Assembly (NCBI GenBank): GCA_044892525.1
Contig: CM097885.1
Coordinates: forward strand, 35,714,001 to 35,778,000
Reading direction: 5' to 3'
DNA length: 64,000 nucleotides
Source: Schmidtea polychroa
Lineage: Eukaryota
The position numbers were made by a program, and so were the translations under genes. The notes beneath the pieces are model-generated. The model did no database searches. It worked only from the letters and a program-made list of their open reading frames with translations, and was not told where the DNA came from. This document shows, piece after piece, positions 1,179 to 52,924 of this stretch (within the stretch, counting starts at the first letter, position 1; every line of letters starts with the position of its first letter).

Positions 1179-1825
1179 TTAATCTCGTTCCACCCAGATG
1201 ACATCTGATGAATCTCTTCTGTGATTTCTTTTCTTTTTCCGAGAAGGCGATTTACTTCTGGATTTTTTGTGTTTTTTGCTTTTTTTCTTGGGCTTTTTCA
1301 ACTTTTTACTAGACTTATTTGAGGAATTATTGAGATGCTTCGATTGGGAAATTATTTTACAAGAGTCGCTTGAGCTTTCAGAATCTTCATTAACTGTTTG
1401 GATGGAATTTTTTAACGGAGAATAATTGATATAGGTAATGGTTTCTGGCTGTTTTCGCTGAGATGTATTTTCATAAAGATCATGAGTCCATCTATCACCT
1501 AACCCTATCCAGTCAAATAAACTAGAAGATTTTTCTTGTTTCTTTTTCTTTTCTAATATCCTTAATTCATTTTCAATTTTATAATGTCGCCTGATTTCTC
1601 TTTCTCTTTTGTCCATATGTTTGGCGATTAAAGAAGATACGTCATTTTTTTCAGAATTAGATCTCGATCGTTTTCTTTTTTTAGACTTTGATTTTAAGTA
1701 ATCTTCCCAAATTTCTTTTTCTTCTATATGCTTAACATTAAATTAAATCAAAATGAAAAAAAACTTACATTATTGTGTAAAATAGCATGCTTAATTTCGT
1801 TATTTAAAATATTTTTATAACTCAT
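1179..1825 (-). CDS. NKAPD1 (C11orf57)-like Lys/Ser/Arg-rich protein, ~202 aa, two exons (1825-1769, 1730-1179)
   Basis: ATG at 1825. A GT..AG intron at 1768-1731 joins MSYKNILNNEIKHAILHNN in frame to HIEEKEIW... and the 145-aa ORF. The N-terminus resembles NKAPD1 ([21 protein letters not shown]); also a DRWxH motif and K/S/R-rich tail. Confidence 0.65.
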
Positions 1826-2476
1826 TATAAATTATAAAGTTAAATTATAGCATAAAAATTTTTGACACTTTGTTACAGAAATAATATTTTTTAAATATTT
1901 GAATATTCTAAAATATTTAAACAAACTATTATTTTTCTAAAATAAAATTCCAACAATTAGGTTTTATAGTTTTAATTTTAAATTTTATGATTATTAAAAA
2001 GCAAAGCTACATTTACGATATATTTCAAAAAATTTTTAATTTAATTCAATTAATTAATTTGTTTAATTTTAAGTATTTTGAATATATATAAATATTTATA
2101 GAAGTTGTAAAATATTTTATTATAAATTTTGTTTTAATTGTTCGTAAGTGCTCACATTTCACACTAGTTGAAGTTCTTTTTGTTGCATTACGCTCCTCAC
2201 CAAACATTATGTTACAAAGGCTACACTTTCAGTTTTACTTTTTTATTTTAAATAGTAATGTTATGATTATTAACTGACTTAATTTCTAATTTCATCATAG
2301 TAAACAATTGTTGGGTCAGAAAGTAAGTAATTAAAATGTTCAATTAAAACTAAATATGTAATAGTAATTAAAACAGGACGTTGAAGCAGTCAACATAAGC
2401 ATTTTTGGCTGAATACAGTAAGCCATATCCTTGATTAAACTAATTTTTTTTTAAAAATAACAAACACCACTAACCA

Positions 2477-3337
2477 ATGCAAACAAACACAAACGACCCC
2501 TTTCGACAAAAAAACACCACATCAACGAACGACAACACTAACCCTCATATCAACCCATTTTCCATAAATTCTATTATTAACCCAAAACAGAACATTCCAA
2601 ACTGCTTCACGGACGAAAATAGAACCCCGCGAAAATGACTAGACTTCGCAAAATTAGCTTTAACACTATCAGGCGTAAAGTTGACAAAAACCTTATGTTA
2701 AAAAATAATCACAGCCCTCCCCAGCAACAAACTCAATGAAATTGCAGACCAAGTAGATGAAATCTCAAAAAGTGAGGACCCTTATGACAAACTATGTCAC
2801 ATACTAATATCAAAAAACAAAAGACAAATGTTGGAGTCCTGCTTAAACAACACACAATTAGGGGACAATAAACCTTCCGATTTCCTCAGACAACTAAAGC
2901 ATAAATTGGAGCAACCAAATATCACCAGTTCAGGATCAAACGAAATGGTTAAAAAATTATTCCTGCGCGCTATGCCACAAGAAATACGATTAATCTTAGC
3001 CGCAAATTACAAGGCAGACATAGAAACACTAGCAGAAATAGCAGATCAAATCAACGAAGAAATTAACCCCACAATCTACAGCACCCAAAAACAGTACAAA
3101 AACCAATTATACCGCAACGAACAAACAACAAACAATAAGAACAAAAATTCCGAAATAAAAGAATTCATAACCAACCTCATGAGCTCACTGATCCGCAAAT
3201 TCGATGAAGTAATGATGGAAAACAAACAAATTAAACGTGAACTCGCCGAAATAAAAGAAAAAACCCAAAGACAACCGTCCACCAAACTATTATATCAGAA
3301 ATCGGTCAGATTCACGAAACTGGAAAAACAAAATTAA
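2477..3337 (+). pseudogene. Gypsy gag (degenerate)
   Basis: DPYDKLCHIL...LNNTQLGDNKPSDFLRQL...KKLFLRAMPQEIRLILAA...LAEIADQI, typical of CsRn1/Mag-type Gag. Upstream part has stops. Confidence 0.8.
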
Positions 3338-3397
3338 AGATGAAATTTGCTACTACCACCAAAGGATCGGGAACAAAGCATAAAAATGCAATAACTC

Positions 3398-3686
3398 GTG
3401 CAACTACAAAACACAGGAAAACTGATGAAGTCGCCATTAATCGCACCGACATTTGGCGACAAAAACAAAACATTCACGGTGCATTCACAAAAAAGCAATT
3501 TCCTGATTGATACAGGTTCCATCATCTCCCTATTAACCCACAAAATGTTCAAAAACCTAAAAACAACAAACGACAAACTTAACGCAGCTAACGGTACCAA
3601 CATAAGTAGATTCGGACAATACACTACGACAATAACAATCAACAACAAAGAATACAGCTGGTCGTTTACTATAGCCGAGGTACAAC
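3398..3686 (+). pseudogene. Gypsy aspartic protease, 5' part (cut by the Polinton)
   Basis: FLIDTGSIISLL active-site motif, LNAANGTNI, and WSFTIAEVQ, which continues as QPIIGADFL after 17180. Confidence 0.9.
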
Positions 3687-3950
3687 AGTGGATGAATGGC
3701 CTTCACGGACCCAACCCTCCCTAGCCTCCAACCCCAAGACTCTTCCCACCCATACTAAAAAACTAAACTTTTTCATCTTTTAACCCCTATTTTACATCTT
3801 TTATTCATAAAAACCCTCAAATACACGAACCCAACCCTCCAACCCAACCAAGGAAACAAAGTGATTGAAGTGGGAAACTTGAAAAGGGTAATCTCCGTGA
3901 AGGCCATTCATCCACTACTCTAAAATATAAAAAATTTAAATCTTAAAAAC
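3687..3950 (+). repeat. Polinton left TIR (~265 bp)
   Basis: Reverse complement of 16906-17174, with only a few substitutions and indels. Confidence 0.95.
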
Positions 3951-3971
3951 CTCATAAAATATATTTAAAAA

Positions 3972-5262
3972 ATGAACAACACAAATCTCAAAATTCAAAA
4001 TAAAAATAAATTAAATCTTGATTACAATAAAGAGTTTATGCAAGAAATAAAAAAAATTGATATTTTAAAAATATCACCAACTTCAGGATCTATTGCAAAC
4101 TTAAATCGTTCAGGTGATATAATTTTTCAATCTCTTCAAACATCATACCCTATAGATATTTGTAATGCTAAATTATATTATAAAATTGAATTAGAAATTG
4201 AACCAAACAAAGATATAACTCTAGAAAACAATTTCTTTCCAAATTTATTCAACAACATGAGATTAAAACTAGGATCATCAGAAATTGAAACTGTTTTGCA
4301 TCCGGGGGTATATTCTACAATGTTAAATTTTGTTTTGACTGGTTGTGATTATAAAAATGAATATGGTGAATTAGCAGGTTGGATTCCTGATGTTAATAAA
4401 GGGGATTTAGACAAAGATGGTTTAGATATAAATTATGGTTACCATAAAAGAGTTGAACTTTATAAATCTAAAAAATTTGAAGGTTATTTTGAACTAAAAT
4501 ACTTATTTGGATTCCTTCAAAACTATAACCATATACTTCATAATGATTTTATAGAATTAGTTTGTAATAGACTAGAAGGTGATAAAAGATTGTTCTATGG
4601 AGGTGTAGATACAAAAGCTAAATTAAAATTAAAAACACTTGAATTACATATACCCGAATGGACATTAAACCCACATTCTGAAATCAAACTCCTTGAAAGA
4701 TTAAATTCCAACAAATCTATAAATGTAAATTATTTAAATAGAATATGTGGTGAATTTAGTATGACAGAGGGTTCAACATATTCTATAAAGGTAGCAAATT
4801 TAGCATACCGACCAAGATATATCTTGATTGGATTCAAAGAAACAGATTCATCTTTCCAAAAAAATAACAACTGTTTATTCAAAAGATTGGAAATGATAAT
4901 TTAAAAACAATACAAATTCAATTAAATAGTTCTTATTATCCAATAAATTGAATGGAATTTAATATTGAAAATAATGAAAACATATTCCCATATCTAAATT
5001 ATATTGAAACATGTTATGATTTGAACCACAATTAAGTTTAGAAGATTTCAAAAATGTATATTCTATATTTTGTATAAATGTTTCTGATCAAGATGATGAC
5101 CTTGCTATAAATAATGTTGATGTTACACTTCATATAACAAAGGATTCTAATTTTAAAGCTAAAATATATACATTAATATTAGAAGAAAAGAAAATAGAAA
5201 GGAAATTATATGGTGGAAAGATTTCAATAATTGAAAATGTACGAGGTGATGCACAAAATTAA
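3972..5262 (+). pseudogene. Polinton major capsid protein (double jelly-roll, PY/hexon), disrupted near the C-terminus
   Basis: 310-aa ORF (LNRSGDIIF, LENNFFPNLFNNMRLKLG, ELKYLFGFLQNY, RPRYILIGF). It continues after a frameshift at ~4875 as LKTIQIQLNSSYYP...YSIFCINVSDQ, with a further stop and frameshift, to TAA at 5260-5262. Confidence 0.85.
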
Positions 5263-5279
5263 AAATATCTCTATATAAA

Positions 5280-6731
5280 ATGTCTCTAAATAAATCCTAT
5301 TATTGACGTGAAATTTGTAATTGTCAAGTTACAAGACATCATAAAGCAAGCCATGTTAAAACTAAAAAACATATACTTAGATCTAAACTAGCAATAAAGA
5401 CCTTAGAACCCAATTCTTCAAGTAGATTTATTTTTGAGAATCAACTCTTTGAGAATCAACTCTTTGAGGGTGGTGACCTACAATCTTCAAAAACAACATC
5501 CACAATATTGAAACCCTTTACTACTGAAAAATATCCAGGTGAAAGACATTTATTTAAACACAACTATACTGGACCAGGAACACGTCTAGATATTAGATTA
5601 GATGAAAATAATAATCCTAAACAAGGAGAAGAACCAATAAATAGAATTGATCAAGCAGCTTTAAAACATGATATTGCTTACAATTCAACAAATCTTAGAG
5701 ATAGACACATTGCTGATGTGAATTTAATACATGATTTAAATAATATCCAAAACCCATCAACCCAAGAAAAGATTCAAAGAGCTCTAGTTAAATTAGCAAT
5801 GAAAGGTAAGATTTTCTTTGGCTCAGGACTTCTTAGAATAGCAAAAGATGTTGCTAATAAAAAGATTATTCAGCAAGCAGACACTGAGAATCAACTCTCT
5901 GATTCTACAAATTTACAAACCCCAACAGAATCGCAAATAAAATATGCCAACGAATTACACCATGAATTTAGAAAAAATAAAAAATATTTAAAAGTTCAAG
6001 TACATGAAAAAGATCAAACATGGTCTGCTGATTTAGTCTTTATGCCAACCAAATCATCAGACCCTGAAAAATATAAAATAATTTTAACAGTAATAGATTT
6101 ATATACAAGATTTGCTTTTGCAAGATGTTTAGAAACCAAAACAGGATATTCTATTACAGAAGCATTTGAAAATATATTTGAAGAAAATCAAAGAATCCCA
6201 AAATATTTATGGTGTGATAAAGGAACAGAATTTTACAACAAAGTTTTTACAAAGTTTTTAAATGAAAATGATATTAAATTATATTCAACAGAAAACGAAG
6301 GAAAAGCAGTTGTAGTTGAAAGATTAAATAGAACATTAAAAAATAAAATGTGGAAATATTTTACTGCTATTGGAAAACAAAAATGGAACAATGAATTGTT
6401 ACAAAAGATTGTAAATGAATATAATAATGATGTACATAGTTCTATAAAATCAACACCTTTAAATGCTTCCTTGAATCCTTTAAAACTTATGAATCCTGAA
6501 ACCGTTAAAGTGGTAAATGAAAAACCAAAGTTTAAAATTGGCGACCGAGTAAGAATATTTAAATATAAAAATAAATTTGAAAAAGGATTCACAGCAAAAT
6601 GGACAAATGAAATTTTTATTATAAATAAAATACATTATACAATTCCAATAACATATAGCATCATTGATTTAAATAATGAAAAAATATTAGGTAGATTTTA
6701 TAATAATGAACTACAGAAAACAGATTTCTAA
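5280..6731 (+). CDS. Zn-finger / parvovirus-type phospholipase A2 / retroviral-like (rve) integrase fusion; one TGA at 5304
   Basis: PLA2 Ca loop HNYTGPGT and catalytic DQAALKHDIAY. Integrase DDE motifs WSADLVFM, LWCDKGTEF, VERLNRTLK. ATG 5280 is in the same frame and gives YY*REICNC...HVKTKKH. Confidence 0.92.
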
Positions 6732-6735
6732 CCCC

Positions 6736-7520
6736 TTAAAATAAACTTTTCCATATTTCAGTCTCTTCTCTATCCAAATAAATATAATTATATTTTTCTT
6801 TCCAATGATTATCAACAAACATATCAAACATGTGCTTATCAGGTTCAACATTTGAAAATAAATCACTATAAATCATATTCTTATCACGCTTATCTAATTT
6901 AAAAAATATAAAACAATTAGAATTATTTCTTATAGAGTTTTTATCTAAAGCATAATAAGTTTGAGATATATAAATAACATTACAATTATTATGTCTCCCT
7001 CGTGTAAAATAACTCTTTTGAATCTCTTGATTTTTCATATTAACAACATCATCAAATATAACTAGATTCTTTTTATCTTTAGGAAGTAAATCACAATGTA
7101 AAACATCTTCAGGTTTATTAGAGAATAAAACTTGAATTGCCTCACCTTCATAGATTAATCATTTTTATTAATAATATCTGATTCTAAAATCTTTTTCTTA
7201 TACCAATCAATCATATCACAAGGCTGAAAAACCTCTTCAGGACATCTATGTTGATTTTTAAAAATATCAATTATGGCTTTTTTAGTTAATTTATTTTCAA
7301 ATCCACATTTCAAAAGTTGTAATTCTGGTTGATTTATGGTCGTAGAATAAAAGATTAAATTATTATAATCTAAAAAACCATCTTCAAGCAACATTCTCAA
7401 AAGAAGTACATTCTTACCACATCCAGAAGAACTAACAATTAATAATCTAAAATTATCAGGAAATAATTTATTATTAAATTTAGATTTATGTCGAGTTAAA
7501 ATTGGTTTCCAAATATCCAT
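6736..7520 (-). pseudogene. A32/FtsK-like DNA packaging ATPase (frameshift at ~7155)
   Basis: Walker A region LLIVSSSGCGKN, Walker B KNLVIFDDV (~7045-7075), and FTRGRHNNCNVIYISQ...IRNN motif. Confidence 0.9.
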
Positions 7521-7536
7521 TTTTATTTATTATAAA

Positions 7537-8063
7537 ATGACAACTGAAGTATCTTTACAAGAATTAATAAATTCAATTAAAATTAATCAGTTGTAATCGA
7601 TGGTAAAAAATATTTTATTGGAAAACATGTAAAAGAACAAGTTAAAGAGAAACTAAAGGAGCAAGCTAAAGAAGGTGGTATTCTTCCTCTAGCAGCTTTA
7701 ATACCTGCAATCATTGCAGGTTTATCAGGTGCTGCTGGAATAGCTGGAGGAATTGCAACTACAGTTCAAAAAGCTAAAGAATCTCAAAAGACAGACCTAG
7801 AAAAAGAAAAATTACAAACTGAAATTGATTCAATGAAAAAGAAGGGTAAGGGGTTATATCTCAATCCTTATAAAGGTAGAGGTTTAAATGATTTTTTAAA
7901 AAATCAAATTTCTACATCTAAATCTTTATCTTCAAAAGATAAAGATGATTTAAAAAAAATATGTAAATCTTTAAAGAATGGATGTGTTTGTAAACTTAAA
8001 AATGGTAAAGGATTGTATTTAAAACCTTGGAAGGAACAAGAAAATGGTATAAATTTAAATTGA
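7537..8063 (+). CDS. Adenovirus pX/mu-like core or membrane-active protein (frameshift at ~7590)
   Basis: The frame upstream of the 76-aa ORF reads KEGGILPLAALIPAIIAGLSGAAGIAGGIA, similar to adenovirus pX (RGGILPLLIPLIAAAIGA). It is followed by repeated GKGLYLxP motifs. Confidence 0.7.
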
Positions 8064-8085
8064 TAGTATTTTATATACTATAAAA

Positions 8086-8854
8086 ATGGTATACGAAGAA
8101 AGATTAGCACTTTTAAAAAAAATTACAATCAGAAAAAGACATCTATAATAAAAAAGATACGGCTCAACACACCGAATCTATAATATTAAATGAGGTAATG
8201 ACGCAACAACAACAACCAACAATTAAAGCTATAAAAGGATTAGAATCTCTAAAATCTAAAGAGTTGGAAGATAAAAAACAACAAAAAGAATTGGAGTGGC
8301 ATGAAGATGAAATGATTTTAAAACCTCTTAAAGTTGATCCTAAAATTAGAGAGGGTTTAAGTGATTCAATTAGACCCATATTTAATACTAATGCTAAAGG
8401 ATATACAATAATAACAATTAATAAACAAAACTTTACTTTATTATATACATCTTCAGAAGATAAACCACGTTTTCGTTCACAAAATCTTTATAATAATGAA
8501 TACTTAGACTTTGAATTTACAGATGATTTTTATAGATTAATTTGTGGATATCCTTCAGATGATATTAAAAAAATTGAAAAATATTTAAATTTAATAAAAT
8601 TAGTAGGTGGTAGTTCAAAAGCAAAATATATTCAAGATTTAAAGAATTATTTAAATAAAAATGAAAGGGGTTATATTGTTAAAGAAGGTGAGGGATTAAA
8701 CCCAATCAATCTTTTTATTGAATTAAGAAAACTATTAGCAGCTAAAAAAGCAGGACATAATAATTTAGATTCTGATATTTTAAAGATTTCTAAAGAATTA
8801 TTAAAACAAGGAATAATTTCAAAAGATAAATTTAATAAATATATAAATGACTAG
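8086..8854 (+). CDS. Conserved Polinton protein (PZ-like); probable 5' frameshift
   Basis: C-terminal ELRKLLAAKKAGHNN...ISKELLKQGII motif, recalled from Polinton proteins next to the protease. TATAAAAATG at 8086; main ORF 8198-8854. Confidence 0.55.
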
Positions 8855-9350
8855 TCCTCCGAAGGCAGTTCCGAAGGTTTTCTCAATATTAGATTTTTTA
8901 AAAACATTTGGAATAAATACAAAAACAAATTTTGATTTAAAAGATTATGCAGACTATTTAAATTTAAAAATTAAAATATTAATGAATGATGAATTATCGA
9001 GTTTGAAAGGTTCGAAGATCAAAGACACAAAGGTTCGAAGATCAGTGAATAATATAATAATTAATTATCAAGATTCAAATGAAAAGGGATCTCATTGGGT
9101 TTGTATATATAATAAATCTATGGACGAAGTCCCACTATACTTTGATTCTTTTGGGATTAAACCCACTAAAGAAGTAGAAGACTATCTTGAAAAAAATTAT
9201 ACTTTTAATTCTTTACAAGTTCAACCTAATAATACTAAAATATGTGGTATTACAAGTTTATATGTTTTGTATAGATTGAATAATTCAAAAGGGGATGGTT
9301 TTGAATCTATAATCCAAGAAATTTATAATAATCTAAAGTCTCTATTATAA
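8847..9350 (+). CDS. Adenain-like cysteine maturation protease
   Basis: IINYQDSNEKGSHWVC (His), YFDSFG (Asp), QVQPNNTKICG (Gln, Cys). Confidence 0.92.
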   Translation: MTSPPKAVPKVFSILDFLKTFGINTKTNFDLKDYADYLNLKIKILMNDELSSLKGSKIKDTKVRRSVNNIIINYQDSNEKGSHWVCIYNKSMDEVPLYFDSFGIKPTKEVEDYLEKNYTFNSLQVQPNNTKICGITSLYVLYRLNNSKGDGFESIIQEIYNNLKSLL

Positions 9351-9380
9351 CTATAAAAAAATGGAAGATAATTTAAAAAA

Positions 9381-10127
9381 ATGGTAAACATAATGTCAGA
9401 TAAATATTCAAGAAGTTTATTAATAAATTCAAATGAATCAAATTTTACTATAAATTTTGAAGATTCAATAAATTTAGATCAAAATTTAAATTATGAATTA
9501 GGACTCTTGTGGTTTAGCTGTTTTAATACTATTTTTAATATAAATATTAATAATAATAAATTTACTATAGTTAAGAGGGATATTAACCCCAAGACAATGA
9601 AAAATAGTGTATTTGAAGAACACGACACTATAACAATCGAACCAGGATTATATGAATTAATGGATTTAGCTAAAACAATTCTAAAAGAAACAAATGGAAA
9701 TGTAGAAATAAAAGTAGATATTCAAACTTCAAAATGTATTACAACTTTAAAAAATGTTGGACTTGCTGTTACTATTTCTAGTTTCTTTCATACTATTTTA
9801 GGTTTTGAAGTCAGAGAATATCCACCATCAACTATTAAATCTAAAAATATTATACAAATAACAAATATAAATTCTATAAATATAGAGTGTGATTGTATAA
9901 TGGGATCATACAATAATGGTAAACATGCAAATATTTTATATTCCTTTCCTTCCAATGTTGTTCGAGTTGGATATAAAATTGTTGAAAGAATGAACCCCCC
10001 AAACTACTTACCTTTATGTAGAAAAAACATAATGAATATTAGTTTTAGAATTGTTGATGAAAATGGAGAATTAATTAATTTTAATGGAGAAAAGATTTCA
10101 ATGTGTTTACATTTGAAACAAGTCTAG
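9381..10127 (+). CDS. Polinton minor capsid protein (penton, PX)
   Basis: FTINFEDSINL..YELGL, INIECDCIMGSYNNG..ILYSF, YLPL..ISFRIVDENGELINFNGEKI..LHLK. The true start may be ATG 9361 with a 1-nt slip in an A run. Confidence 0.85.
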   Translation: MVNIMSDKYSRSLLINSNESNFTINFEDSINLDQNLNYELGLLWFSCFNTIFNININNNKFTIVKRDINPKTMKNSVFEEHDTITIEPGLYELMDLAKTILKETNGNVEIKVDIQTSKCITTLKNVGLAVTISSFFHTILGFEVREYPPSTIKSKNIIQITNINSINIECDCIMGSYNNGKHANILYSFPSNVVRVGYKIVERMNPPNYLPLCRKNIMNISFRIVDENGELINFNGEKISMCLHLKQV

Positions 10128-10145
10128 ATTTTTATTACTATAAAA

Positions 10146-11081
10146 ATGAATTATAATAATTTTAATAAGTTGGGATTATATAATGATGGATTAAAAGATG
10201 AAGATGTTATATCTCTTACAGAAAAAAGATTTGTTAATGAAAAAGGAGATTCAATGAAGGGTGATTTAATTTTAAATGGACACCAGATAAAAGAATTATC
10301 TTCTCCAATTAATGATTTTGATGCAACTAATAAAATATATGTAGATGTAGTTGTTAAAAATTATACTGATTTAACAACAACAAGAATTGATTCAATGGAA
10401 TCCAAATTTAATAAATTACAAACCCAATTAAATGAAGAAGCTAAAAAGATAGCCAAAGAAAAAAATAAAAGACTTGTGGATAAACAACTTATGGATAATA
10501 AAATTAATACAATATATAATATAATAAATGAGATGATTACATCGTTTAATAAAAGATTTGTTAAATTAGAGTCTCATACAACACACATTAACACAACACA
10601 CACTATTAGAAAAAGAGCGGCTGAATTAGAACAGAATAATATATTATTACCCAATGCATATAAACATTTTATAGAATCAACTTTAATAATAACAAATAGT
10701 AAAGAATGGTCTTGTTTTATGGTTGAAAAGATTATTGATCCTTATTTCTTTTTATTTAATGATGATGATGAAACAATGAAATGGTTTGTTAAATGTGATT
10801 ATAATAGTAAGTTTGAAAAGGGTGATGTTATAATAACTGGTTATGATTTACCACATGGACATTGGCATGATAATACTGATTCATATAAAACACATAAAGT
10901 TAAAAGTAAGAATATTATTTTTAAAAGCACACTTGTGCATTATATAGATTTAATATTTTATGAAAAAAAGGTTGATGTTGATCAAGTTCGTAAAGCGTTG
11001 TATAAAGACATTCTCTCAACAAGAATTTCTTATGATATGCGAGTGTTGGTACCAGATAATAAAGTCTTGTTGAGAGTTTAA
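10146..11081 (+). CDS. Putative fibre/spike protein
   Basis: GDSMKGDLILNGHQIKEL..P....DATNKIYVD fibre-type motif, then a coiled coil and a globular C-terminus. Lies directly after the penton gene. Confidence 0.55.
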   Translation: MNYNNFNKLGLYNDGLKDEDVISLTEKRFVNEKGDSMKGDLILNGHQIKELSSPINDFDATNKIYVDVVVKNYTDLTTTRIDSMESKFNKLQTQLNEEAKKIAKEKNKRLVDKQLMDNKINTIYNIINEMITSFNKRFVKLESHTTHINTTHTIRKRAAELEQNNILLPNAYKHFIESTLIITNSKEWSCFMVEKIIDPYFFLFNDDDETMKWFVKCDYNSKFEKGDVIITGYDLPHGHWHDNTDSYKTHKVKSKNIIFKSTLVHYIDLIFYEKKVDVDQVRKALYKDILSTRISYDMRVLVPDNKVLLRV

Positions 11082-11098
11082 GTTTTTTTATTATTAAA

Positions 11099-11698
11099 AT
11101 GGAAGTACGAAGTCCAGAAGTAAGAGAAAAAAATATTTATCCAGAAATATGGAATCAAGATTTTAAGAATCAAAAACCATCAGCTCCTACAGAACTTGAA
11201 GTCATGAGAGTAAAAGAATTTAAATCAGAGACTTTACATTTACAAGATTTGTTGAAACATTATAAAAAAATTAAAAAAAGATGGAATAAAGGGAATACAG
11301 CTTTAAAGATTATAGGTTATTCTTTAGGATTTACATCTGCAATACTTACAATTGTTTTACCTATAACTTTACCAGTTGTTACTCTTGCACCTGTAATACT
11401 TGGAAGTATTTCTGTAGCAGATACTTTCTTGACTGAAATGGTTTCTTTATCTTATACTTCAAAAAAGAAAAGTTTATATCGTGAAGTTTGTTTGATAATA
11501 GAATTAGGAATCTCTAAATTATTTTTATTTCAACTAAAAGCATTGGAAGATGGAATCTTGACTGATGATGAAATAATGAAATCAAACCAAATAATAAGGG
11601 ATATTAAAAATGAAGTTATAAAGTTGAAAACTGCAAAGGTTAAAAGTAATGAATATTCTAAAAAAATACAACGAGAGAAATGGTTAAAAACGAATTAG
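11099..11698 (+). CDS. Polinton membrane protein with a hydrophobic hairpin and PSAP motif
   Basis: Hydrophobic stretch IIGYSLGFTSAILTIVLPITLPVVTLAPVILGSISV; KALEDGILTDDE; N-terminal IYPEI and PSAP. Confidence 0.65.
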   Translation: MEVRSPEVREKNIYPEIWNQDFKNQKPSAPTELEVMRVKEFKSETLHLQDLLKHYKKIKKRWNKGNTALKIIGYSLGFTSAILTIVLPITLPVVTLAPVILGSISVADTFLTEMVSLSYTSKKKSLYREVCLIIELGISKLFLFQLKALEDGILTDDEIMKSNQIIRDIKNEVIKLKTAKVKSNEYSKKIQREKWLKTN

Positions 11699-11988
11699 TC
11701 AATATTTTAAAAATAAAAAATGGATGAAATTGAAAAAGAAATAAAGTCTTTAATGGACTCTAGGTTGATGGATTTCAAGAGTTTATCACTTGAGGATAAA
11801 ATTAAATTTGGAGAAAAGTATTATATAATTTGTCTTCAAATAATTCAAATAATTATCATAATGATTCAAACCCAAACTATTTAAATGACTTCAAATTATT
11901 AAGTATACAAGATCAAATTGAAAAAGGAGAATATTATTTTGCCTTATTCCCACAACTAATTAAAAAATAAAAAAATAAACATATAAAA

Positions 11989-12441
11989 ATGGATGTCTTT
12001 ATAAAAAAAGTTGAACAACTTTCAGTAGTTGATCCTTCAATATTAAATAAGATTCAACAAAAAGAGAAAGCTTTTGAGTTTGCTAAAGTTAAGAGTGAAA
12101 ATCCTACTTTTTCTCAATCTCAAATTTGTAAAATGATTGGTACTTCAGACTCGACGATGAGAAGAATTAGAAAAGATTTAGGAATTGATTCCCCTTATAG
12201 GCATACAGCTAAAAAGAAGGTTTTAGAAAAAAAGGCTTTTTATTGTACAGATTGTTCAAGTAATGTATCTTCTCAAAATCATAAATGTATCAAGTCTATG
12301 AAATATAAAAGAAATGATCGTATGGCTTCTGGGACAGTAACCTCTGGGATTGATGTAGAAAATTTTTTAGATCAACAACCTTCAACCACTAGGATATTTA
12401 GCAAGTGGGGAGAAGAAAATAAAACCTTAATAAATGAATGA
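11989..12441 (+). CDS. Helix-turn-helix DNA-binding protein with a CxxC..HxC motif
   Basis: ENPTFSQSQICKMIGTSDSTMRRIRKDLG has an HTH pattern; FYCTDC...NHKC follows. Preceded by TATAAAAATG. Confidence 0.65.
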   Translation: MDVFIKKVEQLSVVDPSILNKIQQKEKAFEFAKVKSENPTFSQSQICKMIGTSDSTMRRIRKDLGIDSPYRHTAKKKVLEKKAFYCTDCSSNVSSQNHKCIKSMKYKRNDRMASGTVTSGIDVENFLDQQPSTTRIFSKWGEENKTLINE

Positions 12442-12727
12442 TCGTGTTTTAAGGTTGATAAGAAGTAATCCTATTATTAAAAAGGAATCAAGTCTTGCAT
12501 TAAAAGAATATGATGAGAAATCTCCAAAGGATAAAGCCTTGCATGCCATGCAACTTGCTATTAGAGAGCCTGTGTTACTTTGGATTATAAATGATGTTGA
12601 GATTGAAAGAGATTATCTAAAAAAAGAGTTGATAAAAATATCTAATGAGATTAAAGCTAGAAAGACTTCAGCCAAGGTAGAGCAAGAGAAAATAAAAGAG
12701 CAAGTAAAAAAGATGTTAAAACTGTGA
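12434..12727 (+). CDS. Polinton hypothetical coiled-coil protein (97 aa)
   Basis: Overlaps the stop of the previous gene and starts with TAAATG. Confidence 0.5.
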   Translation: MNDRVLRLIRSNPIIKKESSLALKEYDEKSPKDKALHAMQLAIREPVLLWIINDVEIERDYLKKELIKISNEIKARKTSAKVEQEKIKEQVKKMLKL

Positions 12728-12881
12728 AAGAAAAAATTTTTATTATTGAAGTAGATGGTTTATTTTTTAATTTATACAAACCTTTAATAATATCAATTAA
12801 TAGTGTTTTGGATAAAAGTATTTTGTCGTCAGTTAAGGACTTTAGGTTTTCAAATATTGATTTTAAAGGTATTTCAGTCAT
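12657..12881 (-). CDS. Small Polinton protein with a C-terminal hydrophobic helix
   Basis: Starts with TAAAAATG like the other viral genes. Tail IFSFTVLTSFLLALLFSLALPWL. Confidence 0.4.
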   Translation of the reverse strand: MTEIPLKSIFENLKSLTDDKILLSKTLLIDIIKGLYKLKNKPSTSIIKIFSFTVLTSFLLALLFSLALPWLKSF

Positions 12882-12908
12882 TTTTAAATTACTATTTTAA
12901 AATTTTCA

Positions 12909-12960
12909 GAGGCCTTCAGCCATCAGTCAGCAGTTTCAATCATGGATGACTGAAGGTCTC
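12909..12960. terminator. 16-bp stem hairpin just downstream of the pPolB stop
   Basis: GAGGCCTTCAGCCATC ... GATGACTGAAGGTCTC, 14/16 Watson-Crick pairs, in an AT-rich intergenic gap. Function is inferred. Confidence 0.45.
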
Positions 12961-12969
12961 AATAATATG

Positions 12970-15900
12970 TTATTGTTGATTGATCATGAAACTATCTGTA
13001 TATAAATATTTAGATTCTATGTTTATAGTGTCTAAAATATGATTATTCATATTTATAGGATATTGTTCTATATCTAATTCTAAATATTCATTTCGACTTT
13101 TTGGGTAGAGTATTCGAACTTCATACAGTTGAAGATCTGTTATGTTTGTATTATATAATTCATTCAAGATCTTTAAATTTTTTATATGTGGAATCATGTC
13201 ATTACCAATTGGGAGTGTCTTTTTTAGATCTGATAAAATATACCTCTTATCATCATAATTAGATAATGATATTTTATTCGATTCCTCTAAATACATGTTG
13301 TGTTTCTCAGATTTAAGTTGATGTACTTTTACCATTTTATCTGGTTGATTTTTATTTAGAATATCCTTATAGTCTTGATGTGGTATATTCCTAGAAACTG
13401 ATTTCTGTATACCTTTATTTTTGTTGTCTTTAGATGTTTTAAGTTTTGGAGGTATTAATACTGGTATGTCAAATGTTTGATCCATAATTCTAATTGAATG
13501 TTTTTCTATCTTTAGAGCATCAATCATTTCTAGTGAATATTGTTTAGCCCTAATAAAGACAGCATCAATTATTGGAGTATTTGGTTTTTCATCTTTAAAG
13601 GTGAATAATTCTCCAGATGAATTTATTAAATTGCTTAGGATTTCATTTTCAGATATTTCCTCTTTTAGGTTTTTAGTATATATTTTTAAAAACATGCTGT
13701 CTGTATCCATAGCATGCATAGATATTCTACCCTTAAAATGTGGTAGTAGAATATCATAATAGGTTTCATACATTTGTAGTTTTGATAATTATAAAATGCT
13801 GAAACCTATAAAGATTGGTTTGTTATAAGTCTTTTCACCATTTTTTAGTTCAACAGCTATTAGGTTCTCTGAAAAGACTTCCGCATTTTTAAATGTAGGT
13901 TTTGAAAGCATTCTGTTATATCTTGCAAAATCCTTTGGGCTATTTGTCAACAACTCTACTCGAGTATATTTATCAACATTTTCCATGGTTTTCCCAAAGA
14001 CTGAATTATTTAAAAGCTTATAAATCATGTCTAGGAAAGCATTTCCATTTCTTTTTGCTTCATTCCTAGATTGGATATTTCCCTCTATAAACTTTTTCAT
14101 AAATGGTCTTTGGGAAAACTTTATTATAGAATGGATATTTTTTATTTTCATCCCATGAGAAAGATAAAACTTCAACAACCTATAGTGACAAAGATAATAA
14201 GTTTTATCAGTTTGATCACATAAAAGTTTTGTTGTTGTTGGTCTATCTTGTTGGGATGATAATTCATTGGAATCTACTTTCCTTTTTACTGGAGCAAAAT
14301 GAAAGTATCTAGTAACATATTTTATATCATCGGGGTATTCTAAATCACATTCTATTATATATCCCACTTCTGAATCTTTTTCTGTTGATAATATTTGATT
14401 CATGAGTTTTCTTAGCGAAGTCCCCTTGGGGATATTTATGTATTCAAAGTTTCCAATTGGTAAATATTGAGTCATTACTCCTGAATATAGAGCAGTTGCA
14501 TCAATATACATTATTTCTGATGGATTATTTAAACTCTCCATTATTAATTCAAAATCCTGATCTGTTTTTATTTCTACACCACATGCTTCAGGATCTTCAC
14601 TAAAGAATTTCTTATAGAGGGATAGGAAGTTGTTTGCAGTTATATGTCTATTCCCCATTACGGAACTAACACCTCCTCTAATATTTTCTTTAAGTACATT
14701 AAACATGTCGAGTTCAGTTAATAGTTCTATAACCCCTTTTCTTTAGTCCACATAGTATATATTATATACTATGTGGACTAAAGAAAAGGGGGTTATAGAA
14801 CTATTAACTGAACTCGACATGTTTAATGTACTTAAAGGTCGATCGCGATCTACCGGTAGATCGCGAAGGATTTTTTAGTAGATCTTCATAAAAAAAATAT
14901 TTTTTATATAAATTTAGATTTTATATAAAATTTCTGTTTTATGCTTAAATTTTTTGCCAATTTTCATGTTCTGTGTTCCATTTCTATGGTAATACTAAAT
15001 AACATTTTTTAATTTTGATTTCACCATTTCCAAAATGTTATTTAGTTTAATTTAGTTTAATTAATATTATGTAAGTATTAAAAAAGTAGATCGCATACAC
15101 ATTTTGGATGTGAATGTAGCTCTCCTAGAAAAATTAGTGGGCACCCCTGGTATATAATAATATATCCCAAGCTAGAGATGGGGATGTTATGTAGTTGTAG
15201 GGTTTTAATTCAAATGCCTTGCAAAACCCTTCGAAGCAGTCTGCAAGTATATAAACATCTAGGGATAAATACATGTCAGTATATTCCACAATGTTTTTAC
15301 AGGAGAATAATTCCCACATTTTATTCCCTCGATTATATTCCTGATCACTTATATCTGTTTGATTTAATGTTGAAAAGAATTCCTCTTTCCCTGGTAATTC
15401 TATTTTATTATATCTATCAAATGAGTTGATGTAATCATAAGGATAGATTCTCTTTGCTAAACAGGTTTTATATTCCTCCTGGGGAATATTATTTTTTACT
15501 AATACTTTTTCTATTGTGTGCTTAAAGTCTTCAGGTTTCATAGTCTTTGCTATTCCATCCAAGGACATTGATAGAAAGTTTAGGGAATCTATAAACTTCA
15601 GTCGTCCATATTGAATACATTTATATTTTTCTTTTGTTAGTCCTATGACTTTAAAGGAGTTTTTAGCATTTGCTGCTAAATGCTTTATGAATAGGTGGAT
15701 GTCATATCCAAAAAGATTATGGAATATGACTGGTACAAATGTGGGTTTTCTACAATTTATATTACAGTTGTTATGTGCTGCACCCCTAAAGTTATTTACT
15801 TTTTTAAAGTGATCATGATCAGGAATTTTTCCTTCAGTAAGTGTTTGTTTACACATCCAACAAGTTGTTGCGTTTTCATATTCTTCCCATTGTTGTTCTG

Positions 15901-16869
15901 AAAAGTTTATCCTTTTGGATATATTAATTCATTTTTATATTGCTTATATTTTGTAGGTCTTTCATTATGATTTTCTTGAGGATGTAAGTGTGCTAGTATT
16001 GACCATTGGAAACATTTATTATCCTTATTTCGAATATTTATAATGTGAATAGAAGTAAAGGGGGTAGGGATATATGATTTAGGGTTTGGAGGTGCTCCTC
16101 TCCAATATTCAATTTCAAGTGATTGAAATGAAAGGAATTTTAGGTTTGAGTCTCCTAATTCTTGTTCAACCACTCTATGCTCTTCTCCAACTTTATGAAT
16201 AATATCTTTAATTGTTTTTTTAAATCCCTTGGTTGAGAATAAATAATTATAAGATGTTTCAATAATACGGTCTAGGACTGTTGTGTTTACATCTTCCCCC
16301 CTCCAATATCTTGAGTGGATTCTAATTTTATATTTAATAACATTGAATCTTGATTTACCAAATTTTTTTATAGCATCTTCCATTGATTTTTTTATGTTTT
16401 GTTTATTTCTTTTTATATACTCTAAAGATGAAGAGGATATAAATGGTTGTTCAAATTTATCTACATGGTTAAAGTTATCCCAATTATATTTTTCTTTTTC
16501 AATATGTTCTTCATCTTCTTCTTCTTCTTCTTCTCTAACTTTTATATCTTCTTCTTCAGGGTCTTCAGGATCTCTTTTAACAATAGCACATTGTTTTAAA
16601 TGTTTTAAATAATAAGATTATGTGGTGAGTTTTAATCTACATATAGGACATTCAAATTCTTTTCTATTTCTTTTAACCCCAATACAGTTTTTAAAATGGT
16701 TATCATATCCTAAAAGTAAATATTTTTCTTTACATTTAGGACAAAGTTTTGAGTTTGTATCATTTAGTCCAACTGTCTTTAATAAATGCTCTTTGGATTT
16801 TTGGTGTGATATTAGTGCTCTTCTATTTTTAAAATTTTTATTGCATATTTCAAAGTTGTTAATATTCAT
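12970..16869 (-). pseudogene. Protein-primed family B DNA polymerase with N-terminal Zn fingers, TP-like region and Endonuclease VII domain; disrupted
   Basis: NIRNKDNKCFQWSILA; EndoVII DHDH..FRGAAHNNCN; exonuclease FHNLFGYD, FIDS, YPYDY, LDVYILAD; polymerase IRGG, YIDATALY, KLLNNSVFGK, MDTDS, KQY, KGI. Stops at 16618 and 13789, frameshift at ~15910, insertion at 14762-15149. Confidence 0.95.
14838..15149. mobile_element. hAT (Charlie/SPIN-like) MITE inside pPolB, left TIR missing
   Basis: Right end GTGGGCACCCCTG, followed by GTATATAA. The left flank ends in GTATATA. Subterminal palindrome GATCGCGATCTACCGGTAGATCGCG. Confidence 0.75.
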
Positions 16870-16905
16870 TTTTTAAAAAAATTTTTTATTGGGTATGCTA
16901 TTTTA

Positions 16906-17174
16906 GTTTTTAAAATTTAAATTTTTTATATTTTAGAGTAGTGGATGAATGGCCTTCACGGAGATTACCCTTTTCAAGTTTCCCACTTCAATCACTTTGT
17001 TTCCTTGGTTGGGTTGGAGGGTTGGGTTCGTGTATTTGAGGGTTTTTATGAATAAAAGATGTAAATATAGGGGGTTAAAAGATGAAAAAGTTTAGTTTTT
17101 TAGTATGGATGGGAAGAGTCTTGGGGTTGGAGGCTAGGGAGGGTTGGGTCCGTGAAGGCCATTCATCCACTACT
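16906..17174 (-). repeat. Polinton right TIR
   Basis: Inverted match to 3687-3950; ends ...CATTCATCCACTACT, followed by the TSD. Confidence 0.95.
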
Positions 17175-18204
17175 TACAACAACCAATAATCGGTGCCGAT
17201 TTCTTAACACACTATAACTTACTCGTAGACTGTAGAAACAAAGACTTAGTCGAAAACCCCATCACAAAAACGAAAACAAAACTATCAACAACCAATTACT
17301 TTCCACAAATTGACAATGGAGTAATACAAACTAACCCAACCAATAAAAAAGAAACAATCAATCATAACACTCTAAAGTTAGACAACTAGACCCCAAAAAA
17401 ACCAGAAATCACTAAAGAAATATTTAAAGAACTACTCGACAACAAAATAGTAAGACATTCAAACTCAAAATGGTCTTCCGCACTCATGCTCAAATAAAAG
17501 GCTAATGGGGAATGGAGAGCTTGCGGCGACTACAGAATGCTAAACAAAATCACAGAAGCAGACAATTACACCCTGCCAATAATACGAGATATTATCAACA
17601 GATTAAAAGGGGCAAAGTTCTTCTCAAAAATAGACCTCCAAAAGGCTTACCACCAAATTCCAATCAGGAAAGAAGACATTAAAAAACAGTCATCGTAACA
17701 CCAATTGGCATGTTCGAATAAAACAGAATGCCTTTCGGTTTACGGAATGCAGCTGCAACATTCCAACTCTTCATGGATCAAACCCTAAAAAACAACCAAA
17801 ACACAATCTCATACCTAGACGACATATTGATAGCAAGCTCAAATAAAGAAACACAACTAAACGATGTCGAGAAACTTTTTCAAAACTTCGATACTGAAAA
17901 TCTAAAGATTAACATCCAGAAATGTGAATTCTTTAAAAAGGAAATTGATTTCATAGGACACACATTAAACGAAAGAGGGACAAAACCAATATAAAATAGA
18001 ATAAATACAATACAACAATTCAAACTACCAAACACGATCAGAGAACTAAGACGGTTTTTGGGAATGGTAAACTTTTACCACGCATACATACCAAACTGTA
18101 GCGAAATATTAGCCCCTTTAAGCGAACTAATTAAAACAAAAAGGAATATGAAAATCGACTGGACAGAAAAAACGATCAGAAATTTCGAAATAGCTAAAGA
18201 CAGC
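17175..18204 (+). pseudogene. Gypsy protease C-terminus and reverse transcriptase (degenerate)
   Basis: QPIIGADFL; GEWRACGDYRMLN; FSKIDLQKAYHQI; MPFGLRNAAATFQ; YLDDILIAS; LRRFLGMVNFY. Confidence 0.93.
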
Positions 18205-21823: not shown

Positions 21824-21978
21824 AAGAAGCTGTACAGTGACTGTTTCAAATCAAACACCATGCACAAAAACTAAAATCAAATAAAAAATGGTATTATGTA
21901 CAACTTTTATGTTTTATCTATCGTTTGGTTGTAACACACAAACCACTCTACATAACAAAATACAAATAAATGTAAATA

Positions 21979-23825
21979 CACCTAAATCCAAAATATAAAA
22001 GTTTCTATAATCTAAAAAAATAATCGATAAAATTATACTATAGCAACACACAAACTTACCTGTGTGCAAAAATTTAATGTTCCGAAAGTTAAAAGTTTTA
22101 TTTTAGGAATTGAGAAAGTGACAGAAAAATAATTTTACATACAAACACAGCACACATAATATATAAAATACACGCAAATTTAATATAGCTTTTTTTAATT
22201 TAACTTTATTACACCTAATCGCGAAAGTTAACATTGTCTATAATATACGTTGGTGTGCACACCACCTGAGGTGAGTCACCAATTATATGACAATGTTAAC
22301 TTAATTTCATTTTTTCAATTTTTCAAAAATCGTTTTAATTGAAGTAATTTTTAGGACTTGAATTTTGATTTTATATAATTATGAGATCATTATTCAAGTT
22401 CTTAAATATTACTGTTAGCAGTGGCGTACCGTGAGGTTCTTGCGCCTGGGGGCAACTGAGAAATTAGCGCCCCTTTATATATATATTTAATTTAATTTTT
22501 TTAAAGAATATTAATGACGAATAACGAAATTGGTTTAACAGATTTTAATAAGCGTATAAAAAATATTTATTGACTTAGACAAAATACAGTTTAACATTAA
22601 ATATTAATTCTTCTCGCTTTTGTCGTGGCAAAAATATCTATAATCTCATTAAAATCAATTTTTTCAAACATTTCTCTTTCTATGCTAAGAAGAGCTAAAT
22701 CGTTCAGCCGTGTTTGAGTCATAGCTGCTCTTAAATACGATAAAATTAATTTTAATTTACTGAAAGATCTTTCGCAACTGGCAATTGATACAGAAATTGT
22801 AAGAAGTATTTAAAATAATAAAGTTTTTGTGTTTTTATTTATACACTACACGTATAACTAAATATACACGTAGAAGTAAATATTGCAAATAACTGAATGC
22901 ACGCACATCTATTCTAAGAAACTAATGAAGTAATAAAAAATATATTAATCTCTTAGATCTTAAGAATAATTTATTACTTAATTTTTGTTCCAAATTGGCT
23001 TCCCTAATTTTGGCGCCCGGGGACAAATGTCCCCCCTGCCCCCCCCCCAGTTACGCCACTGACTGTTAGTCAGCATTTATAATATTGATAATATATAACA
23101 TTGATAATTAAATTTCAGGTGTTTTTTTAGGAATTTTATGGTATTTTATTTGGATTTATTTGGATTTATTTCGTAAAAATGTAAGTTAGATATTTTTATA
23201 ATTATAAATAAGTAAAGTAATCACCATACATTTATTTTTTAAAGACATTTAGTAAAGAATGGATAAAATATTTTTTAAATTTATGTAATCTGCTTTAGAA
23301 TTTTGTCTATTTCTGTAATTCTATGAAAATATTAATTTGTTAAAATAATTTATTAAAATTTACGATTTGCGATTTTTTTCCTGCAAATTCAAAGATGTCG
23401 AAGGATCTTCTTCAATATCTGTAAATCTAAAGAAATTTTATATCCTAAATTATTTTATAATTAAATCTTACGATGTATTTACTTTTTTTTCACTAAAGCT
23501 CAAGGTAGAGCAGTCAGAATCTGATTCAAAAGTTTTTTTGTACATAACTTTTTAAATAATTTGAAAATATTGATATGTTAATTATATGTTAATCAATGTA
23601 TATATCGCATGAAAAACACTTTACTTAATTTTGTATGTATTTTTCATTATGTGTGCTGTGCTTGTATGCTTAATTATTTTCTCTCACTTTTTAGATTCCT
23701 ATAATAAATATGTTAAATTTCGCAGCATTAAATTTCTACACACAGGTAAGTTTGTGTGTTCCTATAATATATATTTATTGATTTTTTTTTAGATTATAGA
23801 TAATGTTATATTTCGCAGTTAGGTG
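21979..23825. mobile_element. Non-autonomous Tc1-like element with ~200-bp diverged inverted repeats
   Basis: TA-CACCTAA...TTAGGTG-TA termini. 21979-22180 matches the reverse complement of 23627-23825 (shared ACACACAAACTTACCTGTGTG). An inner repeat of the terminal motif lies at ~22210. Confidence 0.65.
22419..23061 (-). mobile_element. hAT (Tip100-like) deletion derivative
   Basis: CAGTGGCGTA..TACGCCACTG TIRs and 8-bp TSD ACTGTTAG. Minus strand encodes the dimerisation domain SIASCERSFSKLKLILSYLR...LALLSIE. Confidence 0.92.
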
Positions 23826-24249
23826 TAGTGTATAATAAATGTCATAGAAAGATTTTCGAAAAGTATTTTCTTTTACTATACCGCCTGCGTTTGAGTAGCA
23901 TGGAGTGCATAAATCACCACGCATAACAAAATAACCATTAATCAACTAAATTATAAAAGAAGTTAAGCGTTGAGAAAACACAATATATACAATCGTCGAA
24001 TTAATCATGAGTTTTTTTTTCGTTGCCATATGTTATATTTGTACAAATTTGTGTATGACACATTTTTGTAATTTTTATCGACTCTGCACCAAGGGTGTAA
24101 TTTTTAACAAAAAATTGAAATGTATTGTACCAATATGATTTTGCGATGAGTATTTGTGTAAAATTCCTTAAAATGGCAATCATTTCTCTATATTCTAAAA
24201 AGGCCACTCTCCATAACGAATTTAAAATATAAATGATAAATAAAGACAA

Positions 24250-48991: not shown

Positions 48992-51016
<2,025 letters not shown>

Positions 51017-52924
51017 TATCAAAATTAGACCTATAGTGTCCAACAAAAATGGACCAACAACTAAAACAAGTTGGCTCCTTGCAAAGATCTTGAAACCTTT
51101 ATTGGACACGATACCACACCATCTTCAAAGCAGCGACTGCCTCATGACAAGACTAAATAATAACATGACTTGTCATAGAAAATTCCAATACCCATTTAGT
51201 CTTGATGTCGTATCACTATACACATCTATCGAACCAACAGAGGCTATTCAATGTTTAGAAAAGAAATTAAGAGAAAGCAACTTGTTAATAAAGGAAATGA
51301 ATATCGAGAATATCACCAAACTACTTACTGTTATCCTCGAGAACACCTATTTTACCTTTGAACAAAATATCTATAAACAAGTTAAAGGTCTGCCTATGGG
51401 TTCTAGCATATCAGGACTGCTAGCAATCATCTTTATGGATAACCTCGAACGACAGACACTGAGGACCATACAACCCATCGGTTTCTATGCAAGATATGTA
51501 GATGATATCTTCATCACGACCAAAAAACAGAAAAGAAGCGGAGGAAATATTTCATACATTCAATGCGGCTCATCAAGATATTAAGTTCGAAATCGAATAT
51601 CCGGAAGAAGATGGATCCCTCAATTTATTGGATTTGAGAATCAAAATAGAAGAAAATACTCCAACATACGGGTTCTACAGAAAACCAGCTCGCAAAGAAA
51701 TATTTATGCACCAAAGATCAGCGCTTCCATACTTACAGAAAGTACATGTCATAAGAAACGAGAAACGAAGAATAGCCAATCGATGCACGGAAGAAAACGA
51801 AAACTTTAAAGAGCAATCAAATTTCAATAAAATCCTACACCGAAACGGATACCAAGGTGAGGACATTGAAAAAATGAATTCTACCCCAAGAAGATCTAGG
51901 GAATTAACACAAAAGAATCAGAAATATTTCTATCTGAATATCCCATTCATCAGTGACATACTCGACTTCAAGATCCTGAAAGAACTTAAACGTACCGGTC
52001 TTCCAATTCGGATAGCACATAAATCTTGGACATTGAGAAGGGCTCTGGCAGGCAACATAAATAGAGAAAACAATTGCACAATGAAAAACTGCCAGACACC
52101 GAAAGATATGTGCTTTAGAAAAAACATCGTCTATTGCATCACGTGCAATGTATGCAATGAAATCTACATTGGAAGTACCCTCAGGACATTGCACCAAAGA
52201 GTTAAAGAACATCTAGACCCTGGTGGAACATCCTCGTTGGGCAGACATCTCCGGCAGTGTCAGCCAACAGAGGAAAGAAAAAATATTTCAATAGAAATCA
52301 TAGCTAATGGAAACATCCAAAAGAAAAATGTCAGAATCAAAGAAGCAATTCTCATCATAAACAGACAGCCAAAGATCAACACTAAAGAAGAAATCAATGA
52401 AATCATGAATTTGATCTGTTGTCATTGACCTTGAGAATAACTGACAATATATAAAGAAATTAAAAAAAATAGAATAAATTAAAAAGTAATAATTAGAATA
52501 ATATAGAAAAAATTTTTTAAAAAATAGGGTTTGAAAATCAAAATTGACACATTTATTGAAATATTTAAATAGCATATATAAGTAGTTATTGGAGGCTTTA
52601 TTTAAAATATTTTCAAATATTTTATTAGGCTTCTAGAAGCTAATTATAGAAGCTGTAAAAAATTTAAAAATTTTTAGTTAGTGTCATTTTGAAATTTTAA
52701 ATGTAAAAATTATAAAAAATTTTAAAAGTTTTTAGTAAAACAATTCATTATATTTACAACCAATGAGAATTAAGAGAAAGGAAATAAAAGAAAGATTGAA
52801 GGGTATTTTGAGGAAGAACATTGCTAAATTCCAGGAGATTGACAAGGACTATCGTATAGTCGAAAATTCTTTCATTAAATACATTATTTGCAGCAAAAGG
52901 CTTAAATTATCATTTTATTGTTTT
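51017..52924 (+). mobile_element. Penelope-like element, 5'-truncated (RT + GIY-YIG + 3' region)
   Basis: Starts at KIRPIVS and has the same motifs as the left copy. One extra A at 51522-51527 shifts the frame; stop at 52428. Confidence 0.95.
52835..52873 (+). ncRNA. Candidate minimal type I hammerhead ribozyme
   Basis: GAGA-TTGACAA-G-GACTAT(CGT)ATAGTC-GAAA-AT-TC-TTTC: U3-A8 core variant, 6-bp helix II, palindromic AATT helix III. Lies in the Penelope 3' region. Confidence 0.45.

Follow-up and report, generated by a model that had tools for sequence, protein, structure and literature searches.

Each end of a 13.5-kb Polinton/Maverick element carries, within its terminal inverted repeat (TIR), a second and inverted copy of its own tip. 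The nesting is genuine and characterises the TIRs of a single Polinton subfamily; the layout is apparently undescribed, and its function is putative. The element occupies positions 3687–17174 of the window (the whole 64-kb stretch of DNA analysed), between outer termini designated A (left) and D (right).

Terminus A (3687–3709, plus strand; 23 bp, a single AGT unit) recurs inverted as inner copy B (3894–3919, minus strand; 26 bp, two AGT units), which is complete to the terminal base and whose AGT end points to the genome interior. At the right end, inner copy C (16937–16962, plus strand) and outer terminus D (17149–17174, minus strand) are each 26 bp long with two AGT units. The preliminary description had reported a perfectly inverted copy at both ends, and hence four termini in the element; its coordinates are right and its count is confirmed. 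The terminal motif occurs exactly four times in the window (3690–3709 and 16943–16962, plus strand; 3894–3913 and 17149–17168, minus strand), each time mismatch-free, and none of 100 shuffled windows held any match. The chance of such an arm at any given TIR is about 1e-13.

The arms form a 23-bp stem on the left (3687–3709 paired with 3894–3916) and a perfect 26-bp stem on the right, with no palindrome of 6 nt or more inside the arm. They enclose spacers of 184 nt (3710–3893, C-rich on the plus strand) and 186 nt (16963–17148, G-rich on the plus strand), which have the same orientation relative to the tip. The left spacer has a 12-bp direct repeat at 3709 and 3829, and an imperfect stem extension of 5 bp (3714–3718 with 3885–3889) lies 4 nt past the arm. 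At 17007–17042 and 17123–17148 the 3'-ending strand is rich in G runs, with four runs of three or more G directly before the outer arm; these stretches are possible G-quadruplex or GC-box sites.

The left TIR (3687–3961, plus strand; ~275 bp) matches 16899–17171 at 97% (blastn), the right TIR (16899–17174, minus strand) being its inverted match. Of 271 aligned bases the two share 269; their alignment has three gaps, two of a single base within the spacer and one of 4 bases at the inner edge. Going inwards, each end consists of the tip, the spacer, the inverted tip and an AT-rich stretch, after which comes the first gene. The AT-rich inner part (3920–3961, plus strand) contains a TATA-like word and may act as a promoter; the left TIR stops 10 bp short of the capsid ATG (3972). 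The left tip is one AGT short, and B would template exactly that AGT.

A perfect 6-bp target-site duplication (TSD; 3681–3686 and 17175–17180) flanks the outer copies only. Each ~235-bp end had also been proposed as a self-contained mini-element. The unit does have inverted termini of its own; what weakens the proposal is that the TIR extends a further ~40 bp past the inner copy, making the unit part of a longer repeat, and that the TSD lies at the outer copies only. An assembly artefact as the source of the layout was ruled out: the two ends are in agreement, the TSD is undamaged, and the junctions are covered by contigs.

The element, its genes and its surroundings

The element belongs to the Polinton/Maverick group, which it resembles in its protein-primed DNA polymerase (pPolB), rve integrase and double jelly-roll capsid, and probably in its ATPase-like and protease-like genes. 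Passages in PMC8097293 give vertebrate Mavericks TIRs of 46–1,447 bp, (AGT)2 or (AG)3 ends and a 6-bp TSD; here the TIR length is in that range, the TSD is 6 bp, and the right end reads (ACT)2 and the left end one AGT. The insertion interrupts a Gypsy-type retroelement, with a gag/protease region on the left (2828–3686, plus strand; gag-asp_proteas, E=0.0002) and a reverse transcriptase beyond the Polinton (17728–17994; RVT_1, E=6e-18). Empty sites were found in runs X5 and X18, where Gypsy contigs leave the window at 3687 and go on like the right flank.

The double jelly-roll major capsid gene (3972–5253, plus strand; Pfam PF21738, E=1.4e-17) is broken into three frames, and its three pieces match the relative P0121 at 89–94%. 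It is the first gene behind the TIR here and internal in five related loci (L002, L003, L004, L011 and L013). A region of parvovirus-type phospholipase A2 (PLA2) plus rve integrase follows (5298–6731, plus strand; PF00665, E=3.7e-12; 83% to P0001); its integrase open reading frame (ORF; 5799–6731) is open and its 5' part is broken. An 18-bp motif occurs three times in this region (5435–5467, 5885–5902), two of them in tandem. PLA2 and integrase domains (PF08398 and PF00665) are fused in P0001, the nearest integrase relative, and a PLA2-like domain stands fused ahead of the integrase in many relatives (P0001–P0120). According to passages of Starrett et al. (PMC8502044), the PLA2 domain marks the 'Alpha' adintovirus virion module and is joined to a pX-like tail; the fusion to integrase in the nearest relative of our element differs from that arrangement.

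Two further genes are assigned more cautiously. A packaging-ATPase-like gene in two ORFs (6736–7520, minus strand; Pox_A32, E=0.0045, below cut-off) is 46–59% identical to neighbours of the capsid gene in L003 and L011. A candidate adenovirus-like protease (8847–9350, plus strand; Peptidase_C5, E=0.073, weak and below cut-off) is 44% identical to a gene in L002 and had no useful match in PDB. Clear homologues of both genes lie beside capsid or polymerase genes in related loci. The ORF at 11989–12441 gave weak helix-turn-helix matches below thresholds and is a candidate DNA-binding protein.

The pPolB gene (12970–16869, minus strand; PF03175, E=2.6e-10) is in pieces, begins with an N-terminal C2H2 finger and has relatives 33–53% identical; its alignment, used as a profile, matched no solved structure. 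It lacks the region matching residues 279–642 of P0181, the nearest full-length relative (window 15904–15925), which we read as an internal deletion of roughly 1.1 kb, and it carries an insertion of ~410 bp within 14688–15148. At the left end of this insertion, ~75 bp that include polymerase coding DNA are doubled as a near-perfect hairpin (14688–14761/14763–14837), which resembles a hairpin-opening excision footprint and is followed by a small palindrome (14843–14866); the right end of the insertion we take to resemble a hAT-type terminus. An endonuclease VII-like (His-Me finger) motif lies in the polymerase (15761–15862, minus strand) and in 76 of 120 relatives. PF02945 scored above cut-off in all three relatives chosen for the motif, and was called neither on the polymerase piece of the window nor on P0181. 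Neither capsid nor polymerase matched phages. Judged by its reading frames this Polinton copy is dead, because its capsid gene is in three frames and its polymerase has a large deletion and an insertion.

Elsewhere in the window, 49662–52429 is a 2.8-kb near-perfect inverted duplication of apparent retroelement DNA around a 38-nt centre, and 21977–23827 is an element of ~1.85 kb with diverged inverted ends of ~200 bp, within which an apparent second insertion (~22420–23060) has GC-rich inverted ends.

Further copies and related loci

Contigs of 4 of 24 runs (X1, X5, X7 and X18) were compared with window positions 3600–4500. X1 is possibly the window's own source, and its contigs drop rare variants. 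They cover every TIR bin, at a summed depth of 10,437–102,046, with 4,172–12,318 over the Gypsy flank and up to 2.2 million over the capsid gene; these sums are not copy numbers. Nine TIR indel variants are listed, all in the spacer and two of them within 5 bases of the inner arm. Two match the right TIR of the window, one may, and at least six are absent from both window TIRs, so more copies of the TIR exist, and the nested layout is probably multi-copy. None of the listed X1 gaps or joints removes the inner copy (skips of 35 and 45 bases in the capsid gene were listed). The X1 matches listed also include neither a substitution in the TIR nor a joint that changes strand, and none of their loose ends lies at 3919. 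The outer tip must itself give rise to loose ends, and these too are missing from the matches listed, so the lack of such joints and of loose ends at 3919 carries no weight. The TIR is all but uncovered in X5, X7 and X18, a hole that proves nothing.

Conservation of the arms is within chance and gives no sign of selection: the probability of no arm difference between the two TIRs is 0.42, and that of none of nine indels falling in the arms is 0.17. For all nine indels falling in the spacer P = 0.027, a value biased by base runs in the spacer.

Contigs of X1, X5 and X7 with capsid genes 85–95% identical to that of the window have other DNA upstream (loose ends before 3968–4002), and one X5 contig has 367 unlike bases upstream of its related capsid gene. 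A nested TIR next to the capsid gene is thus the mark of a single subfamily, and these close relatives do without it in that place. The preliminary description had held that related copies without the inner repeat would speak for a one-off rearrangement. No loss of the inner copy is listed in X1; the upstream DNA of close relatives differs.

Alignments of capsid, integrase and polymerase yielded 60 loci from 54 contigs for a wider survey. None of the 54 contigs, at most four of which reach an end, has a tip-anchored inner inverted copy. L021, L030 and L061 are the only loci with TIRs, their tips not starting with AG and probably clipped, and L050 opens on a motif of terminal type; at the inner TIR edge, all four are without an end motif. 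With four informative ends at best, the wider survey is weak. L050, a polinton-like contig, also has a 24-bp palindromic repeat dispersed over several internal sites (1553–15760), and a fold-back at the end of L026 proved to be polymerase-like coding DNA, not a TIR. A single-protein locus search confirmed none of 13 candidates.

Searches with the terminus itself were negative. A 22-mer had no match in viral contigs; a 16-mer gave 10 single internal matches (16–21 of 26 arm bases), none paired, which were dropped as chance; a 19-mer had two matches in bacterial genomes against ~4 expected by chance, also dropped. The TIR had no match in plasmids.

Possible origin and function of the nested ends

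Our preferred reading, held tentatively and at somewhat less than even confidence, is that the nested end was made by fold-back copying, was passed to the other end through a panhandle, and now serves as a local duplex origin or as a template for end repair. During strand-displacement replication, a strand end ~210 nt inside the genome would fold back on the terminal region, pairing being helped by the short imperfect match beside the arm; it would copy the final 26 nt, run off at the tip, and then resume on the genome. Alternatively, an end may have been joined into its own TIR. Panhandle pairing of both TIRs would then carry the new end to the other side. Inner copies that end at the terminal nucleotide with both AGT units are as expected from run-off copying or end joining, and a layout present at both ends, within a TIR reaching ~40 bp further in, fits a transfer of sequence from one end to the other. 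Microhomology is the weak step, because the similarity past the arm falls short of significance (48 of 300 shuffles), a result on which an older, longer duplication behind the arms was also rejected.

The geometry supports local fold-back at each end. Folded as single-stranded DNA, the end gave z = -5.8, and none of 200 shuffles was as good; the last 3' base is predicted to pair, flush, with the inner copy at a probability of 0.91 (left) and 0.94 (right). Predicted stabilities are -31 and -34 kcal/mol for the local stems and -322 kcal/mol for the full panhandle, so that pairing between the two ends is ~10 times more stable than a local stem. The spacers add no folding energy beyond the arms, shuffled spacers being as good in 140, 134, 93 and 120 of 200 cases, and a structured spacer was rejected on these counts (93–140 of 200). 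An Rfam scan of 3500–4100 gave no match, nor did a bacterial promoter scan, which is not relevant to this DNA. The earlier proposal that a displaced strand folds locally at one end thus finds support in its geometry, through the predicted 3' pairing, but draws no support as to use of the hairpin or selection for it.

If used, a single-stranded end of ~240 nt would form a 26-bp stem with its 3' base flush against the inner copy, rebuilding, with no part played by the far end, a duplex terminus at which a terminal protein could prime. The inner copy could also template the restoration of lost terminal bases, such as the AGT of the left tip, or the hairpin could prime second-strand synthesis, which needs a resolving cut. 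Against the preferred reading, protein-primed replicons do not need a hairpin, the palindromic tips published for protist elements (below) accompany mainly non-pPolB replicases, and a flush 3'-OH that is extendable into a snap-back product could be a cost. This copy, moreover, is dead and still without its AGT unit.

Had the layout no function at all, it could be a frozen accident: a single instance of fold-back or end joining, in the founding copy of a young subfamily, that was passed on to both ends and inherited passively. This neutral account follows close behind as a lesser but credible possibility. The two TIRs differ by only ~1%, so perfect arms need no selection, in keeping with the arm statistics (0.42 and 0.17); the upstream DNA of near relatives differs, the layout is unseen in the few related ends, and other fold-back accidents occur in the window (for example, 14688–14837 and 49662–52429). 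An adenovirus 5 mutant with embedded terminal repeats, attributed to Haj-Ahmad and Graham (1986), reportedly arose in laboratory culture: an extra segment of left end plus right end is said to have been added at one terminus and copied to the other, the original terminus being kept behind it. Here no third terminus lies behind the inner copy. Against a mere accident, the subfamily has apparently multiplied and its spacer diversified with no listed loss of the inner copy, and all nine indels fall in the spacer (P = 0.027, with the abundance of base runs there as a bias).

Less probably, the inner copy would act in duplex form, giving the integrase, the zinc finger of the polymerase or some other protein of the element a second site to bind, next to the first-gene promoters at each end, for autoregulation or as an aid to end synapsis. 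The capsid ATG follows it at 52 bp and the polymerase ATG at 67 bp, the TATA-like word follows it within the TIR, the polymerase begins with a C2H2 finger, and the ORF at 11989–12441 has its sub-threshold helix-turn-helix matches. Binding, however, needs neither inversion nor completeness to the terminal base, and we consider this explanation unlikely.

We regard as more doubtful still a composite element, in which the 233–238-bp unit is a past or present mobile miniature Polinton and two copies bracket the core. Each unit does have perfect inverted termini bearing the family end motif, as each long end of KolobokP and of bacterial composite transposons has its own short inverted termini, and KolobokP is described in passages of PMC9587614 as a eukaryotic precedent for composites and solo units. 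Its ends are direct repeats with many solo units, whereas here the ends are inverted, the repeat outruns the unit by ~40 bp, the TSD lies outside the outer copies only, and no solo unit occurs in the 64-kb window.

A parvovirus-type rolling hairpin, in which a 3' hairpin primes the whole second strand, a nick resolves it and the spacer inverts each round, is highly improbable: the A...A' topology is that of the AAV ITR, the predicted 3' end is flush, and the endonuclease VII-like polymerase motif could nick, but both spacers have the same orientation, a Pfam scan of 16 element ORFs of at least 80 aa found no Rep/HUH gene, the polymerase encoded is of the protein-primed kind, the end is the usual (AGT)2, and the nuclease motif, at 76 of 120 relatives, is available but not specific. 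The likeness to AAV, as passages in PMC11575299 describe its ITR, comprises terminal A...A' arms, a priming 3' end (here a predicted base-paired hairpin) and a TIR-internal D-like stretch. Our element differs in its unstructured spacer, in having no spacer flipped between its two ends and no Rep/NS1 HUH nickase found, and in being a double-stranded integrating element with a pPolB. Bidnavirus ITRs are stated, in a passage of PMC4061559, not to form such hairpins.

Nested termini in Polintons were found nowhere in the literature searched, a body without most subscription papers, Repbase reports, Kapitonov and Jurka 2006 and Pritham 2007, which agrees with the preliminary description, where this is not known as a standard Polinton feature. 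A tip copy inverted inside each TIR does not appear in the published passages on Polintons and adintoviruses that were available; the accessible parts of 10.1101/2023.08.22.554363, PMC11414722, PMC11296320, 10.64898/2026.10.13.758929, PMC8363768, PMC6431247 and PMC3511435 likewise hold nothing on nested termini, and nothing was found in the published C. elegans TIR table.

The nearest published likeness dates from July 2026. Passages in bioRxiv 10.64898/2026.07.28.741278 describe palindromes beside the TSD in several subtypes of Halocafeteria virophages and PLVs, mostly with non-pPolB replicases, and offer a hairpin-priming model with accidental annealing as an alternative. These share with our element a TSD-adjacent self-complementary tip in the TIR, found in all complete copies of some subtypes. 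They are tight (52 nt) and belong to protist elements, whereas the arms here, 23–26 bp long and 184–186 nt apart, belong to an animal element that has a pPolB and no palindrome with a gap of 10 nt or less beside its TSD. As described in that source, the screen was limited to a 10-nt gap and would have missed our layout. The end may be described as a long-loop form of the protist virophage palindromic tips with parvovirus-ITR topology, and it belongs to neither group.

Streptomyces telomeres, as presented in passages of PMC5449611, are likewise capped by a terminal protein, and the tip of their 3' overhang can pair with an inner palindrome so that lost terminal bases are repaired. The Tap/Tpg system differs in being bacterial, with an internal origin, a dedicated primase and many short palindromes, and the same passages state that fold-back end repair is not reported for adenovirus- or phi29-type replicons. 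By analogy, each step of the preferred fold-back reading would have a precedent, in virophage/PLV hairpin priming, Streptomyces repair and the embedded ITRs of adenovirus 5.

A possible local release of the viral ends

A bolder and rather doubtful extension is that an animal Polinton lineage evolved ends that define and release themselves locally. It bears on how an integrated Polinton, joined to host DNA and without terminal protein, regains a protein-capped linear genome. A length of ~240 nt is about that of one Okazaki fragment. Were local release to operate, ~240 nt of single-stranded DNA would place the virus-host boundary exactly at the base of the 26-bp stem; the host flank would become a flap open to cutting by the integrase or by the endonuclease VII-like domain of the polymerase, and with the flap removed a duplex origin would stand ready for terminal-protein priming. 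The provirus would thereby become a free genome without a 13-kb single-stranded racket, with ends that are a hybrid of parvovirus-like and adenovirus-like types. By the standing model, as cited in bioRxiv 10.64898/2026.07.28.741278, excision follows once the two distant TIRs have annealed.

As a neutral accident, the layout would be a modest case of copy-back rearrangement at the ends of Polintons. Otherwise, a duplex terminus within 240 nt would offer an oligonucleotide-sized substrate for work on how ends are recognised and repaired and flaps are cut, in a long-loop form that escapes screens for tight palindromes, and would widen the hairpin-tip idea from mostly non-pPolB protist elements to an animal pPolB element.
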